DNA of 64,000 nucleotides from Clostridiales bacterium (GTDB lineage Bacteria; Bacillota; Clostridia; Christensenellales; Aristaeellaceae): positions 8,522 to 72,521 of the forward strand of contig JAFGGL010000063.1 in assembly GCA_016930575.1 (NCBI GenBank), given 5' to 3'. Of the stretch, positions 46,357 through 53,173 are shown in pieces; the first letter of the stretch is position 1; every line of letters begins with the position of its first letter. The notes under the pieces are model-generated. The model was given only the letters and a program-made list of their open reading frames with translations. It made no database searches and was not told where the DNA came from. The position numbers were made by a program, and so were the translations under genes.

Positions 46357-46883
46357 GCGCTAAACACCCCGTGCGGCAGATACTTCCTGATGAACTCCAC
46401 CAGGTCCTCGCTGGGTTCAAACACGATGATATTCTTGATGGAATCCTTGACATAGTAAAAATAATGCAGCTTCGCGTCGCGGTTCAAAAACCAGTTTTTA
46501 GCCTTGATGCCCGGCGTGCTGATGACCCTGCGGAAATGATCGCTTTCCACGGGGCCGAAGGAATCCACGTTCTTCACGCGCATGGTGCCGAGGCTTTTGC
46601 GCTTTTTATTGTTGTACACCTGCGCGAAATCCAGCTCGCCGTTGGTGAAGGTGTACTCGTACTCCGTGCGTAACCGGTCCTTGTACAAAAATAACAGCAC
46701 CGCCAGGCCGATCAGCAGCACCATATTGATCAGCAGCGTAATGTTAAATCCCGTGAAGATCCATTGCAGCATCATGAAGCCCAGTATCGCCGATACAACC
46801 ATCACGATATTGGCAGCATAGTACATGAGTTCCTGTACGACGCGGTTTTTCTTCACGACGACTTCTTCCATAAAATGATCCAT
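46353..46883 (-). CDS. Hypothetical two-TM membrane protein
   Basis: 176-aa ORF whose stop overlaps the start of the desulfurase gene. I do not confidently recognise a family. Confidence 0.6.
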   Translation of the reverse strand: MDHFMEEVVVKKNRVVQELMYYAANIVMVVSAILGFMMLQWIFTGFNITLLINMVLLIGLAVLLFLYKDRLRTEYEYTFTNGELDFAQVYNNKKRKSLGTMRVKNVDSFGPVESDHFRRVISTPGIKAKNWFLNRDAKLHYFYYVKDSIKNIIVFEPSEDLVEFIRKYLPHGVFSA

Positions 46884-46914
46884 TGCCTATCCCCCTCAGA
46901 CGGTATTTCTATCG

Positions 46915-47373
46915 CTATAGAATAACAAACAAATAAATCACGGTTGTGATGCTGCCGACCAGCACGCCGCCGATGACTTCAAACGGCGTATGCCCGATGA
47001 GTTCCTTGAGATCGTCGTCGGAGATCCGGCGGCCGTTGATGAGCACGTCCTTTAAAATGCGGTTGATGACGGTCGCCTGCGTTCCCGTTTCCCGGCGGAC
47101 GCCGATGGCGTCATACATCACGATCAGGCTCAGCACCATGCAGACGCCGAACACCGCCGTATCAAACCCCTTCGTAAAGCCGACGGAGAGCATCAGCGCG
47201 ATCACCATCGCCGTATGGGACGAGGGCATGCCGCCCGCGCCGATGAGCCGCTTCCAATTCAGCTTATGCTCCACGCGGTAATACAGCGGAACCTTCAGCA
47301 CCTGCGCCGTAATCCATGCAAAGAGCGAACACAGCACGACAGGATTGGAAAACACATCCAGTATATTGTGCAT
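46915..47373 (-). CDS. Divergent PAP2 (DUF212/YuiD-like) membrane protein
   Basis: GGMPSSHTA and YDAIGVRRETG motifs. Confidence 0.8.
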   Translation of the reverse strand: MHNILDVFSNPVVLCSLFAWITAQVLKVPLYYRVEHKLNWKRLIGAGGMPSSHTAMVIALMLSVGFTKGFDTAVFGVCMVLSLIVMYDAIGVRRETGTQATVINRILKDVLINGRRISDDDLKELIGHTPFEVIGGVLVGSITTVIYLFVIL

Positions 47374-49797: not shown

Positions 49798-50636
49798 CCA
49801 AACGCTTTCTCCGCGGCGTTCACGGTGTTGGTCATCAGCATGGCGATGGTCATCCTGCCGACGCCGCCGGGCACGGGCGAGATCCAGTTCGCCTTCTCCT
49901 TCACGTGTTCGAAATCCACGTCGCCGCAGAACTTGCCGTCCACGCGGTTCATGCCAACGTCGACGATCACCGCGCCCTTTTTCACCATATCGGCGGTGAT
50001 GAACTTCGGCTTGCCGATGGCTGCGACCAGGATATCCGCGCGGCGGGTATGCGCCGCCAGATTGCGGGTTTTGGAGTGGCAGATGGTCACCGTTGCGTTT
50101 TGATGCATCAGCAGCACCGCCATGGGCTTGCCCACGATATTGGAGCGTCCGACGACCACCGCGTCCATGCCGGTCACGTCGATGCCCGAGGCTTTGAGCA
50201 TGTACATCACGCCCTGCGGCGTGCAGGCGACGGGGCCCGGCTCGCCGCGCAGAAGCTTGCCGAAGTTCACGTTGTGGAAGCCGTCGGCGTCCTTATCGGG
50301 CAGGATCAGTTCAATCGCGCGGTTCGCGTCCAGATGGCCGGGCAGCGGCATCTGCACGAGGACGCCGTGGACGGCCGGGTTTTCGTTAGCCTCCCTGATG
50401 GCTTCTTCCAGCTTTTCCTGCGTTGTATTTTCAGGCAGGCGCACGGTTTTGGAGAATAATCCGAGCCGCGCGCAGGCCTTTTCCTTATTGCCGACGTACA
50501 GCTGACTGGCGGGGTCCTCCCCGACCAGGATGACTTCCAACCCGGGCACCTGCCCCTTCGCAAGCATTTTGTCCACACGTTGTTTTATTTCCGCTTCCAC
50601 CTGCGCGGACAGTACCTTCCCGTCTAGAATATGCAT
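49794..50636 (-). CDS. folD: Bifunctional methylenetetrahydrofolate dehydrogenase / methenyl-THF cyclohydrolase
   Basis: ILVGEDPASQLYV, DGFH, VVGRSNIVGKPM and PVPGGVGRMTIAML. Confidence 0.95.
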   Translation of the reverse strand: MHILDGKVLSAQVEAEIKQRVDKMLAKGQVPGLEVILVGEDPASQLYVGNKEKACARLGLFSKTVRLPENTTQEKLEEAIREANENPAVHGVLVQMPLPGHLDANRAIELILPDKDADGFHNVNFGKLLRGEPGPVACTPQGVMYMLKASGIDVTGMDAVVVGRSNIVGKPMAVLLMHQNATVTICHSKTRNLAAHTRRADILVAAIGKPKFITADMVKKGAVIVDVGMNRVDGKFCGDVDFEHVKEKANWISPVPGGVGRMTIAMLMTNTVNAAEKAFG

Positions 50637-51679
50637 GGCAATCCCTCCGTTTCCAGTAATTTACGCATTCCGAAGCGGGCGACGCCCGCCGCGTTGTCCG
50701 ACGCGTATTCGCGTTGGCCGAACACCGCTTCGGCTTGACATCCGAGTTTAGCAAGCCTCAAAGGTATCTGCTCCCTGAGCAGCGACGACGAAGCCACGCC
50801 GCCGACGATCAGCGCCTGTCCGGCGTCCGTTTCCCGGCACGCGGCGGAAAGCATCCGCGCCGCGGTGCGCGAAATCAGATCGAACAACTCGGCGGCGACG
50901 GTCTCACGGGGGTACTCCCCCGTCGTAAGCCACCTCCTGCACTGCGTTTCCGCGCCCGACAGGTGGCAGTCCAGATCGCCCCGCGCCATGCTGGCGGGCA
51001 GGCGCGCCTCCGCCCTGCCCAGCATCGCCAGCCGTTCCAGCGCCGCGCCGGCGGGAAAATCAAAGCCCAGCAATACGCCGATGCGGTCCGCCAGCTGCCC
51101 CGCATGGATATCCAGCGACCGCCCGAGCGCCGTGACCGTCTCCCCGCCGCACAGCAGGCTTTCCGTAGTGCCGCCAGAAAGATGCAGGGCCACGAACGGC
51201 TCCCGCAGCGGCGGGTTGCCGATCCTCCCCGCCAGGATGTGCCCCGCCTGGTGCGAGGTTTGAAAGAATGGGACGTTCAGCGTACTCGCGATCGTTTGAC
51301 CGATATTCTTCCCGACGGTGAACACGGGCATGTAGCTGCCCTCCGCGTCCCGGGGCTTACTTGACGCGGCGATGGCTGAAATTGCTACATCCCCGACCTC
51401 CGCCATCAGCGCGTCCATCAGCTCCGGCAATTGCTTCAAGTGTGCAAAAACGGCCTCGCTCTGCCTTAGTCCTAACTCGTGATGGGGTACAGGTAGGAGT
51501 TTTCGTTGTGCTGCAACGATTCCCCCATATTCATCACATGCGGCAACCGACGTTGTATAGCAGCTTGTGTCCAGCCCAATCGTCGCCTTCAATACATACC
51601 CATCCCGTTCAACAATGCGCACGCAACTGCCTGCCGTATGCCATTGGGCATTGTCCGACGCCTCATCATACATGTGCAA
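50624..51679 (-). CDS. Peptidase M22 / TsaD-Kae1 (glycoprotease) family protein
   Basis: IGLDTSCYTTS, SHQAGHI and VGGVASS. The start is uncertain: TTG at 51592 would give MKATIGLDTS, the usual family N-terminus. Confidence 0.7.
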   Translation of the reverse strand: MHMYDEASDNAQWHTAGSCVRIVERDGYVLKATIGLDTSCYTTSVAACDEYGGIVAAQRKLLPVPHHELGLRQSEAVFAHLKQLPELMDALMAEVGDVAISAIAASSKPRDAEGSYMPVFTVGKNIGQTIASTLNVPFFQTSHQAGHILAGRIGNPPLREPFVALHLSGGTTESLLCGGETVTALGRSLDIHAGQLADRIGVLLGFDFPAGAALERLAMLGRAEARLPASMARGDLDCHLSGAETQCRRWLTTGEYPRETVAAELFDLISRTAARMLSAACRETDAGQALIVGGVASSSLLREQIPLRLAKLGCQAEAVFGQREYASDNAAGVARFGMRKLLETEGLPCIF

Positions 51680-51776
51680 TCAACAGTCGACAAGCCAACG
51701 TCATATATTATAACCTTAATCAACAAGCATCGCAATCATTCGGGCAGCCTTCACGCAAACAATTCATGAAGGATTT

Positions 51777-51805
51777 TTGACATAATTGTTCCTGTATACT
51801 ATAAT
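51777..51805 (+). promoter_or_regulatory. Perfect-consensus sigma-70 promoter (-35 TTGACA, 17 nt, -10 TATAAT) for the proteasome-like gene
   Basis: Read directly. It lies 68 nt upstream of the ATG at 51873 (RBS AAAGGA). Confidence 0.6.
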
Positions 51806-51872
51806 CTCCCCAGATTGTATTCCGGTATCTCCATCCCCGAACAGCAGACTATCACTGTGAGTCGAAAGGAAA

Positions 51873-52682
51873 ATGAACATGTCTTTAGGTATCGTTATCA
51901 AGTCTCCCGAAGGATTAGTATTAGCTGCCGAAAGCAGGATTACTATGGGAGTAACCATGAATAAAAACACCTCTCCCGTAAATACGCATTGCTATTTTGA
52001 TAACGCCACAAAACTTATGAGTTTCTCTGCACCCAATCAATGCGTCGGCGTCGTTACGTATGGTCAGGCTGTCTTTGGCGGAGCAAATCCGAGGACGGCA
52101 GCCAGTTATATACCCGAATTTGAGAGTACCCTGCCGGAAGAAAGGCTTACTGTAGAAGATTTCGCGAAAGAAGTGAGCCGGTTTTATTTAAAACAATGGA
52201 ATGAAGTACGACCCCCGATGCCGGCGAATACGCCAAGCATGTCTTTTGTTATCGCGGGATTCAATGAAAATGATGTTCTAGGCAGGATTTATGTTGTCGA
52301 GATACCAAGAAAACCGGAACCGGAAGAAAGATCTATCGACAATAAGTTCGGCATAACGTTTGGCGGTCAGCAGGATACAATATCACGATTGGCATTGGGA
52401 TATGACGTGCGCCTGCCTGCCGAAGTTAAAAAAGAGCTTCAGCTTTCACAAGCTCAAAGCGTTAAACTAGACAGTCTGCTCAAAAAATACAACACCTTCG
52501 TACCGTTTCAGGTACTTGCGCTTCAAGATTGCATCGAACTGGCAAATTTCTATATTCAGACAACAATCGAAGCGCAAAGACTATCCGTCGGGATCAGAGG
52601 CGTTGGAGGAGAAGTGGATGTTGCCATCATTAAGAGAAACCAACCGCTATCGTTTGTAAAAAGAAAAACGGAACATCTCTGA
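51873..52682 (+). CDS. Orphan proteasome-beta/HslV-like Ntn-hydrolase-fold protein
   Basis: 269 aa. MNM-SLGIVIKSPEGLVLAAESRITM parallels the mature 20S beta N-terminus TTTVGI....VIMATERRVTM. The C-terminal ..GVGGEVDVAIIKRNQ parallels ..ASGGMIDVAVITRKDG. AT-richer than its flanks, opposite in orientation to both neighbours. Confidence 0.6.
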   Translation: MNMSLGIVIKSPEGLVLAAESRITMGVTMNKNTSPVNTHCYFDNATKLMSFSAPNQCVGVVTYGQAVFGGANPRTAASYIPEFESTLPEERLTVEDFAKEVSRFYLKQWNEVRPPMPANTPSMSFVIAGFNENDVLGRIYVVEIPRKPEPEERSIDNKFGITFGGQQDTISRLALGYDVRLPAEVKKELQLSQAQSVKLDSLLKKYNTFVPFQVLALQDCIELANFYIQTTIEAQRLSVGIRGVGGEVDVAIIKRNQPLSFVKRKTEHL

Positions 52683-52723
52683 CATATCCGGGAATTCCAG
52701 GTTCCCGTCCGCGGCGGGCGATA

Positions 52724-53173
52724 TCAAACCGTATCGCCGTCCGTATACGCGACGCCCTTTCGCTTGCCGCGCTCTATCGCGCCCAGCACGCCGTTGATGT
52801 AACGGCCGCTTTTGGGCTCGGAGTAACGGCCCGCCATCTCCATCGCCTCGCTGATGGATACGTTGTCGGGCACATCGTCCCGGTAGAACAGCTCGTACAC
52901 CGCCACCCGGAGGATGCACAGGTCCACTTTCGACACACGGTCCAGCGTCCATTCGCCGCTGGATTTTTCCGCGATCAGCCGGTCAAGTTCCTTCTGATGC
53001 TCCTGTACGCCCGAAAGGATATCCCCGATAAAAGCCAGGTCCTCTTTGGAGGGTTTACCGCCGTCCCTTAGGTGTTCGTACACCAGCGCGACCGCATCGT
53101 CGCTGAGCTCCCCGCCGCATGACCGCTGATACACAAGCTGCATCGCCGCCTGCCTGGCTATCGACCGCGCCAT
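52724..53173 (-). CDS. nusB: Transcription antitermination factor NusB
   Basis: 149 aa. ARQAAMQLVYQ and ILRVAVYELFY. Confidence 0.9.
   Translation of the reverse strand: MARSIARQAAMQLVYQRSCGGELSDDAVALVYEHLRDGGKPSKEDLAFIGDILSGVQEHQKELDRLIAEKSSGEWTLDRVSKVDLCILRVAVYELFYRDDVPDNVSISEAMEMAGRYSEPKSGRYINGVLGAIERGKRKGVAYTDGDTV

Follow-up and report, generated by a model that had tools for sequence, protein, structure and literature searches.

The closest described relatives of the gene analysed here are probably to be found among the 22 new families of proteasome homologues reported by Fuchs, Alva & Lupas (Bioinformatics 2021), which have Ser1 or Thr1, Asp17 and Lys33 and are free of a propeptide (PMC8665760). 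Several of these families occur in Firmicutes, and the survey found neither an informative gene context nor co-occurring AAA+ proteins for them (PMC8665760). One group, the 'Proteasome homolog with Multiple Insertions' (PMI), is divided into PMI-1 to PMI-6 (PMC8665760). A further point of reference is Connectase, which in M. jannaschii (MJ0548) has a Ser1 nucleophile presumably exposed by methionine aminopeptidase (PMC7980362), and which lacks helices H1 and H2, has a two-helix lid at S3/S4 and is found only in methanogens (PMC8665760). Here we analyse a gene from a Clostridiales bacterium, on the plus strand at 51879..52682 of a 64,000-nucleotide window (the whole stretch of DNA under analysis; contig JAFGGL010000063.1, positions 8,522 to 72,521 of the forward strand). 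Homology and a fold model identify its product, 267 amino acids plus stop, as a proteasome-β-like N-terminal nucleophile (Ntn) hydrolase. We consider it probable that this gene stands alone, was acquired horizontally and belongs to a large family that best matches the PMI type, its product being a Ser1 enzyme with neither an α subunit nor an unfoldase. The kind is known, having been catalogued in 2021, and is functionally uncharacterised; the new point is a link, in relatives of this gene, to a small partner protein and to toxins.

The original prediction, made from the letters of the window without database searches, had described an orphan proteasome-like hydrolase with a serine at the Thr1 position and had regarded such a stand-alone protein as unusual. 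Our results support this in outline. A Ser1 homologue without AAA+ partners is less exceptional than first thought, because 22 partnerless families had already been catalogued (PMC8665760) and Connectase is a precedent for Ser1 (PMC7980362). The word 'orphan' suits the copy in the window but not the family, which usually has a small partner encoded downstream.

A proteasome-type fold with two insertions

The proteasome β/HslV-type fold, which had been recognised by eye, is borne out by structural and profile comparisons. We built an AlphaFold2 model from a 61-sequence alignment (mean predicted local distance difference test (pLDDT), 84.2; predicted template modelling score (pTM), 0.82), and this model shows a proteasome-type Ntn fold, an α-β-β-α sandwich. 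Foldseek searches of the PDB with the model gave 413 matches at E ≤ 1e-3, with target-normalised template modelling scores of 0.5–0.7. The top 50 are all 20S β subunits, α subunits or Anbu, at a probability of 1.0; the best examples include the 20S β subunit 6e5b_X (4.5e-7), 1ryp_K and the Anbu structure 5loy_A (8.3e-7). In a viral library, the best match was a siphovirus (phage) 'proteasome beta' homologue (E = 3.8e-10).

Profile searches depended on depth. A shallow profile (effective number of sequences, 2.4) reached E~0.8 against the PDB and an HHalign probability of 45%. With a more diverse profile of 85 sequences, HMMER matched the Thermoplasma β subunit at E = 1.7e-4, all PDB matches below 1e-3 being proteasome subunits, and HHalign aligned the same β subunit at 93.3% probability (E = 2.8e-7). 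Fragments of the Thermoplasma sequence given to HHalign agree with the PDB alignments. Weak matches to the Pfam proteasome family PF00227 were found in 29 of the 85 family members (best E, 6.5e-5), and no other family was matched more than once. The window protein itself is a remote homologue that falls below the gathering threshold of PF00227 and thus lies outside the Pfam-defined membership.

Compared with PsmB of Thermoplasma acidophilum (MEROPS T1, PF00227), the protein shares the fold, the position of the nucleophile and the equivalents of Glu17, Arg19, Thr21 and Lys33, and the C-terminal 'GG-x-ID-VA-x-I-x-R' strand also aligns. It differs from 20S β subunits in having Ser rather than Thr, in lacking a propeptide, an α subunit and the residues Ser129, Asp166 and Ser169, in scoring below the Pfam threshold and in carrying two insertions. 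The first of these, in the model, is a hairpin, about 11 residues long and poorly ordered, that precedes the Lys; the second is formed by helices at 179–186 and 191–202 (about 40 residues) between H3 (165–173) and H4 (215–236). The model retains H1 (74–83) and H2 (92–110), has a short, poorly ordered hairpin at S3/S4 and ends six residues beyond the last strand (258–261). As a separate observation, residues 213–266 match positions 360–413 of the 427-position profile PHROG 5990, a group of unknown function (E = 7.5e-7), which suggests that there are phage proteins in which a related C-terminal segment is part of a longer chain.

These features correspond most closely to PMI proteins, with which the family shares a proteasome-like core, Ser1/Thr1, Asp17, Lys33, an insertion between H3 and H4, the lack of a propeptide and of an AAA+ partner, and a broad, patchy distribution of the shape expected from horizontal gene transfer. 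Both are known only from sequence. The distribution of the family over taxa (Proteobacteria, Firmicutes, Actinobacteria, Bacteroidetes, the Planctomycetes–Verrucomicrobia–Chlamydiae (PVC) group, other bacteria and Euryarchaeota) is also that of the PMI-2 row of Table 1 in the 2021 survey. Assignment to PMI, as PMI-2 or PMI-4, appears the most likely, although none of the accessions of 10 family clusters is that of a published PMI representative (for example, WP_137109689.1 or HDY66466.1). The difference lies in gene context, which was uninformative in the survey and here includes a small downstream partner together with PemK or Doc toxins in relatives.

Single-gene bacterial β homologues with solved structures, namely HslV, Anbu and BPH, provide a second comparison, and Anbu is among the top structural matches. 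HslV is compact (about 175 amino acids) and works with HslU, whereas the present protein has 267 residues, two insertions and housekeeping neighbours. Anbu is characterised by a C-terminal coiled-coil helix (H5) of some length and by an operon with ATP-grasp, α-E and transglutaminase genes, neither of which is found here, and BPH by its long acidic pore loop. The nucleophile is Thr1 in all three, and none of them has the H3/H4 insertion or a small partner. The window gene could in principle encode one component of a canonical system, be it the 20S proteasome, HslVU or Anbu, with the other components encoded elsewhere in the genome, and the 64 kb of visible DNA would leave room for distant partners. 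We consider this highly unlikely: genes for an α subunit, an AAA+ ATPase, ATP-grasp or transglutaminase proteins recur near none of 83 family loci, no co-occurring AAA+ was found in the 2021 survey (PMC8665760), and the chain has 267 residues with insertions and no Anbu-type C-terminal helix.

Connectase (M. jannaschii and M. mazei) is likewise a distant proteasome homologue with a Ser or Thr nucleophile and no unfoldase, and it acts on a specific protein partner, as the present family might do. A sequence-specific transpeptidase or ligase of this kind, working as a monomer through an amide intermediate on its N-terminal residue, would be consistent with a Ser1 that is exposed by Met removal, as in M. 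jannaschii Connectase, with the absence of a propeptide and of an unfoldase partner, and with an H3/H4 insertion that may disfavour ring stacking; the small partner of the relatives could then be the specific substrate. Such an activity is nevertheless unlikely. Connectase often has a C-terminal β-barrel, and the present family shows neither barrel nor lid: the model contains both H1 and H2, and only a short disordered hairpin stands at S3/S4. There is no Connectase entry among the top 50 structural matches, and members of the family occur in more than 12 phyla, whereas Connectase is confined to methanogens.

Translation start and active-site residues

The plus-strand ORF (open reading frame) at 51873–52682 (269 amino acids) was verified in the window, and the in-frame ATG at 51873 would prepend Met-Asn to the 267-residue protein. 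The start assumed in the original prediction is less likely than the second ATG, at 51879, because the homologues begin M-S-L-G, the NCBI annotation gives 267 residues and the Shine–Dalgarno spacing agrees. About 115 of the 120 closest homologues have an N terminus that reads exactly M-S-L-G-I-V, and an identical NCBI protein (P0001; 'MAG: Clostridiales bacterium', that is, from a metagenome-assembled genome (MAG); hypothetical protein) is annotated at 267 amino acids from the second ATG. A Shine–Dalgarno sequence read from the DNA (AAGGA, plus strand, 51866..51870) lies 8 nucleotides from the ATG at 51879 and 2 nucleotides from that at 51873. The first 65 nucleotides of the gene (51879–51943), coding MSLGIVIK.PEGLVLAAESR.T, are 75–81% identical, as nucleotides, to the corresponding stretch in Methanobacterium and in members of other phyla, a conservation far above that of the remainder of the gene.

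Because homologues begin M-S or M-T, removal of the Met would expose Ser1 and make a propeptide unnecessary. A nucleophilic Ser at the Thr1 position, as proposed, is supported, but the three-residue propeptide that was thought to precede it is replaced by the initiator Met; we infer that Met removal leaves a Ser or Thr nucleophile as the first mature residue. In 267-residue numbering, the key residues are Ser2 (Ser1 once Met is removed), Glu18, Arg20, Thr22, Asp41, Lys45, Gly62, GGQ at 162–164 and R240-G-x-G-G244. HHalign places E18, R20, T22 and K45 on Glu17, Arg19, Thr21 and Lys33 of the Thermoplasma β subunit, which agrees with the pairings first made by eye (as Glu20, Arg22 and Lys47 of the longer ORF), and the sequence motifs quoted at that time are all present in the protein. 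In the HMMER alignment, Ser2 stands opposite the α-subunit residue equivalent to Thr1 without a gap, so that the 1/17/19/21 spacing is kept. The active-site loop is not conserved, as had been noted, although 'FGGQ' does not fall at Asp166/Ser169, where it had been placed: it aligns with the Gly128-Ser129-Gly130 loop, and the Asp166/Ser169 region reads 'IRGVGG'.

Of 82 diverse representatives, 62 have Ser at position 2, 16 have Thr, 3 have Ala and 1 has Pro; alternation between Ser and Thr is what an N-terminal nucleophile would be expected to show. Ser2, D/E18, R20, K45, GGQ and RGxGG are intact in 84 of 84 loci, and the catalytic-type residues are intact whether the gene is linked to a toxin, to the partner only or to neither. 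This bears on whether the protein is a catalytically inert structural member of the proteasome fold, similar to an α subunit or an inactive β subunit. The loss of Ser129, Asp166 and Ser169 would be consistent with inertness, as would the few members with Ala or Pro at position 2 and a family profile that fits α subunits about as well as β subunits. Yet Ser or Thr occupies position 2 in 78 of 82 representatives, D/E18, R20 and K45 are invariant over the 84 loci, and the chains begin exactly at the nucleophile rather than with an N-terminal extension of the α type; an inert protein is accordingly quite unlikely.

Insertion into a housekeeping operon

The gene interrupts a run of minus-strand core genes, as originally described. 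By Pfam, these neighbours are Asp23, Asp23-like, DUF2273 and NusB on one side and TsaD/M22-like, FolD and XseA on the other. The gene was acquired horizontally, a proposal that now holds because of its foreign composition, an empty junction in a close relative and a location that differs among all the genomes examined. It is neither universally syntenic nor compositionally normal, and no unrelated fold was found for its product. The guanine–cytosine (GC) content is 0.43–0.46 across the gene and 0.57–0.70 on either side; for the gene as a whole it is 0.443 (flanks, 0.595), and at third codon positions 0.418 (0.65–0.81 in five neighbouring genes), in keeping with the AT-richness first reported.

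A metagenome contig (L093) has all seven genes in matching order, at 71–87% amino acid identity, without the insert. There, the M22-like gene begins in overlap with the stop of nusB (MSGMRTAIGFDTS...), with nothing between them, and the nusB–M22 junction is likewise uninterrupted in five further, more distant relatives. Nucleotide homology between the window and this contig breaks off at 52724, exactly at the stop codon of nusB (minus strand, 52724..53173), and picks up again inside the M22-like gene. From the empty junction and the interrupted homology, it follows that an AT-rich foreign segment of about 1.1 kb, comprising promoter and gene, was inserted at ~51596–52723. Its right border is exact, being the base that follows the nusB stop codon; its left border is approximate and is probably near 51596 rather than at 51680, as first proposed, because the M22-like protein becomes homologous to those of relatives only some 28 codons into the listed ORF. 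The TsaD/M22-like gene (minus strand, 50624..51679) thus opens with about 28 new codons (51596–51679) that derive from the insert, the ancestral start having been displaced. We found no target-site duplication, terminal inverted repeats, insertion sequence remnant or shared non-coding DNA at the borders, and the cargo is one gene and nothing more.

The insert carries its own predicted expression signals. A sigma-70-type promoter (TTGACA-N17-TATAAT, plus strand, 51777..51805), identified from a 12/12 match to the consensus as originally stated, lies 74 nucleotides upstream of the start codon. On the minus strand, just upstream of the new M22 start, a second promoter-like site within the insert (TTGCGA-N17-TATAAT, 51707..51735), which matches the consensus at only 10 of 12 positions, faces the M22-like, folD and xseA genes that the insertion separated from nusB. 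Expression of M22-folD-xseA may now be driven by foreign DNA. Between the convergent stops of the inserted gene and nusB, which are 41 bp apart, there is a GC-rich hairpin (CCCGTC-CGC-GGCGGG, 52704–52718); a consensus scan did not call it as a terminator because no run of T follows it.

Other observations concern the surroundings of the insert and the communities from which these sequences come. A second dip in GC content lies in the same minus-strand gene run, at 46400–47200 (0.485–0.53, against ~0.60–0.66 around it). The uninterrupted L093 contig shares a Joint Genome Institute (JGI) metagenome (3300009779, Ga0116152) with L007, a 'Candidatus Limiplasma' contig that has a 62%-identical homologue elsewhere, between genes for dihydrodipicolinate synthase (DHDPS) and a sugar-binding protein. 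If the two contigs are from one population, that relative gained the gene independently at another site. In sample SRR13394437 (L004 / L001), the window's own contig occurs together with P0003, a 64%-identical member from another Clostridia MAG, so that donors and recipients of the gene co-exist in the community.

A large and scattered family

The family is large. A word-indexed search returned 421 matches, and among clusters formed at 50% identity 2,754 match with E ≤ 1e-3, of which 248 reach E ≤ 1e-30. Data with one genome per species gave 309 confirmed loci among ~185,000 species, scattered over Clostridia, Desulfobacterota, Bacteroidota, Chloroflexota, Acidobacteriota, Actinomycetota, Armatimonadota, Verrucomicrobiota, Gemmatimonadota, Deinococcota and Methanobacterium. 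Identity across phyla is 58–65%. The window protein belongs to a Clostridia subclade (60–73% identity) for which the sister group is deltaproteobacterial. Relative to its flanks, the gene has a median GC difference of −5.8 points, with 57 of 88 loci below −3 and 5 of 88 above +3. All members are named 'hypothetical protein' in databases, except for a few JGI labels of '20S proteasome alpha/beta subunit'.

A small downstream partner and toxins in relatives

To survey potential partners, we clustered the ORFs within 5 kb at 82 non-redundant family loci. The same-strand ORFs directly downstream form one divergent family in at least 46 of 81 loci (phmmer, E<1e-3), which rises to about 56 after iteration with hidden Markov models (HMMs). 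The core motif of this partner is FG...IP.LS...LTA.Y.A..W..LS..W.I.MY.T.P...EPVE.PSVTL. That 80 of 83 loci have a same-strand ORF starting beside the stop is no evidence in itself, since 85% of 372 control genes meet the same rule; only homology among these ORFs and toxins at a fixed position count as evidence. A word-indexed search with the partner profile returned 12 proteins, all 'hypothetical', and the partner family is without annotation. Structure prediction for the partner is unreliable (pLDDT 57, pTM 0.26).

In 25 of 83 loci, a type II toxin gene comes next on the same strand, at +212 to +374 bp; the other 58 loci are toxin-less. The toxins are PemK/MazF in 17 loci (Pfam E = 1.6e-27 and 2e-12) and Fic/Doc in 8 (2.8e-13). 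Loci with the order hydrolase–partner–toxin are L019, L029, L036, L038, L041, L043, L044, L046, L047, L050, L054 and L055, together with L063, L066, L067, L069, L070, L074–L076, L084, L086, L087, L090 and L091. The N-terminal ~60 residues of the partner are common to toxin-less, PemK-linked and Doc-linked loci (E down to 1e-22), and its C-terminal tail varies with the type of toxin: 'W-x-x-P-E-E-D-x-A-W' or 'WD.LSDEAL' beside PemK, and 'Y.DIW..LA' beside Doc. We take the first of these tails to resemble the MazF-binding C terminus of E. coli MazE. In one 356-residue protein (P0185), residues ~275–356 contain a 'GTQDWL' motif similar to that of the partners at L052, L058, L083 and L085; this may be a natural protease–partner fusion, a lost stop codon or an assembly artefact, and was noticed by eye, the HMM having failed to detect it.

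Genes for restriction–modification, TIR-ATPase, AbiEi, IS1595 and recombinase proteins are abundant around the family loci, two of which are in obvious defence islands. Recurrent neighbours include an IS1595 transposase (8 loci), an Eco57I-type methylase (4) and AbiEi (3). The IS1595-family transposase (PF12762, E = 6e-40, with a zinc ribbon) lies ~750 bp downstream on the opposite strand at 8 of 82 loci (for example, L043 7760–8656) and is a possible vehicle for mobility of the module. The window contains no IS1595 transposase, and no homologue of the partner, PemK or Doc was found anywhere in its 64 kb; the other three Clostridia copies also lack the canonical partner.

The arrangement in these 25 relatives recalls toxin–antitoxin–chaperone (TAC, HigBA-SecB-like) systems, in which an antitoxin–toxin operon likewise includes a third protein and the antitoxin has an extra segment that goes with that component. 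Here, the third component has a protease fold rather than that of a chaperone and is encoded first, the arrangement is absent from the window, and the analogy is a tentative one. Literature searches found no paper that joins proteasome homologues to toxin–antitoxin systems or to defence, none that takes the function of PMI proteins further and no description of hydrolase–partner–toxin operons.

Two related proposals follow the partner. According to the first, a mobile module for conflict or addiction would have the family member as its protease, or as an adaptor of protease-like fold, and this hydrolase would control how stable the small protein is; the window copy would be a stripped-down remnant, kept or tolerated after its transfer, that may have little function of its own. 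Homology among the downstream ORFs, the N-terminal region common to all partner types, tails that track the toxin, Pfam-confirmed PemK and Fic/Doc genes at a fixed distance on the same strand, surroundings rich in defence and mobile genes and the systematic AT-richness of the gene relative to its hosts are all consistent with this view. However, the window has neither partner nor toxin, the four partnerless Clostridia copies keep all conserved residues, which argues for a partner-independent role, most loci are without a toxin, PADLOC gave no match, and the interaction is a putative one for which the partner model is unusable. We regard this explanation as possible but doubtful. A second proposal, which we also put forward only tentatively, is a module with a dedicated protease: the downstream protein would bind the hydrolase through its N-terminal ~60 residues, its MazE-like or Phd-like tail would neutralise a PemK/MazF or Doc toxin in ~30% of loci, and cleavage would set the lifetime of the antitoxin without host Lon or Clp. 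The window gene would then be a solo derivative that was kept for another substrate.

Discussion

Several observations weigh against a solitary, PMI-type Ser1 hydrolase as the best explanation. As a single sequence, the window protein was almost silent in searches, and we count this against the assignment: there was no Pfam match at E ≤ 10, PADLOC and phmmer against the PDB gave nothing significant, and NCBIfam yielded a sub-threshold match to the archaeal β subunit (E 0.059). The HHalign alignment has a gap of two residues in the first hairpin, which puts Ser2 opposite Thr3 rather than Thr1; the gapless Ser2–Thr1 register, which we consider the probable one, draws on the HMMER alignment to the α subunit and on chemistry. 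Ser129, Asp166 and Ser169 are not conserved (G163, I239 and V242 stand in their places, in an alignment of modest reliability). All family members are sequence records, and a copy without its usual partner might be a functionless remnant, although this one is intact and has strong expression signals. Solo copies in Clostridia keep every conserved residue and so probably also have an activity that does not depend on the partner; we infer that they act on another substrate.

We retain the solitary Ser1 hydrolase as the probable explanation and propose the following mode of action. Translation would start at the ATG at 51879, from the insert's own strong promoter, and methionine aminopeptidase would strip Met1. 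With assistance from Glu17 and from the Lys33 equivalent (Lys44 of the mature chain), the free α-amino group and side-chain hydroxyl of Ser1 could attack peptide or amide bonds in the way known from the proteasome, HslV and Connectase; propeptide autolysis, an α subunit and an AAA+ unfoldase would not be involved. In 20S β subunits, H3 and H4 form the contact between rings, a point made about insertions of this kind (PMC8665760). The two-helix insertion between H3 and H4 suggests that no canonical double ring forms, and the enzyme would have specific substrates instead of serving as a chamber for bulk degradation. The small downstream protein is the likely substrate or regulator in most relatives, with a tail that could neutralise PemK/MazF or Doc, a partner that the window copy and the Clostridia subclade would have lost.

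If the dedicated-protease proposal is true, the family would be part of a previously undescribed 'bring-your-own-protease' addiction or abortive-infection system with hosts from Clostridia to Methanobacterium. Should the hydrolase cleave the partner, this would be the first toxin–antitoxin system to bring a protease of its own, and a PMI-type protein would have a function for the first time; should it not, the window gene, however well documented, would be an ordinary representative of an uncharacterised family. The locus is a clean, datable case of a gene moving into a core operon as a 1.1-kb cassette of promoter plus gene, and the conserved small partner offers a testable functional lead for the whole family.

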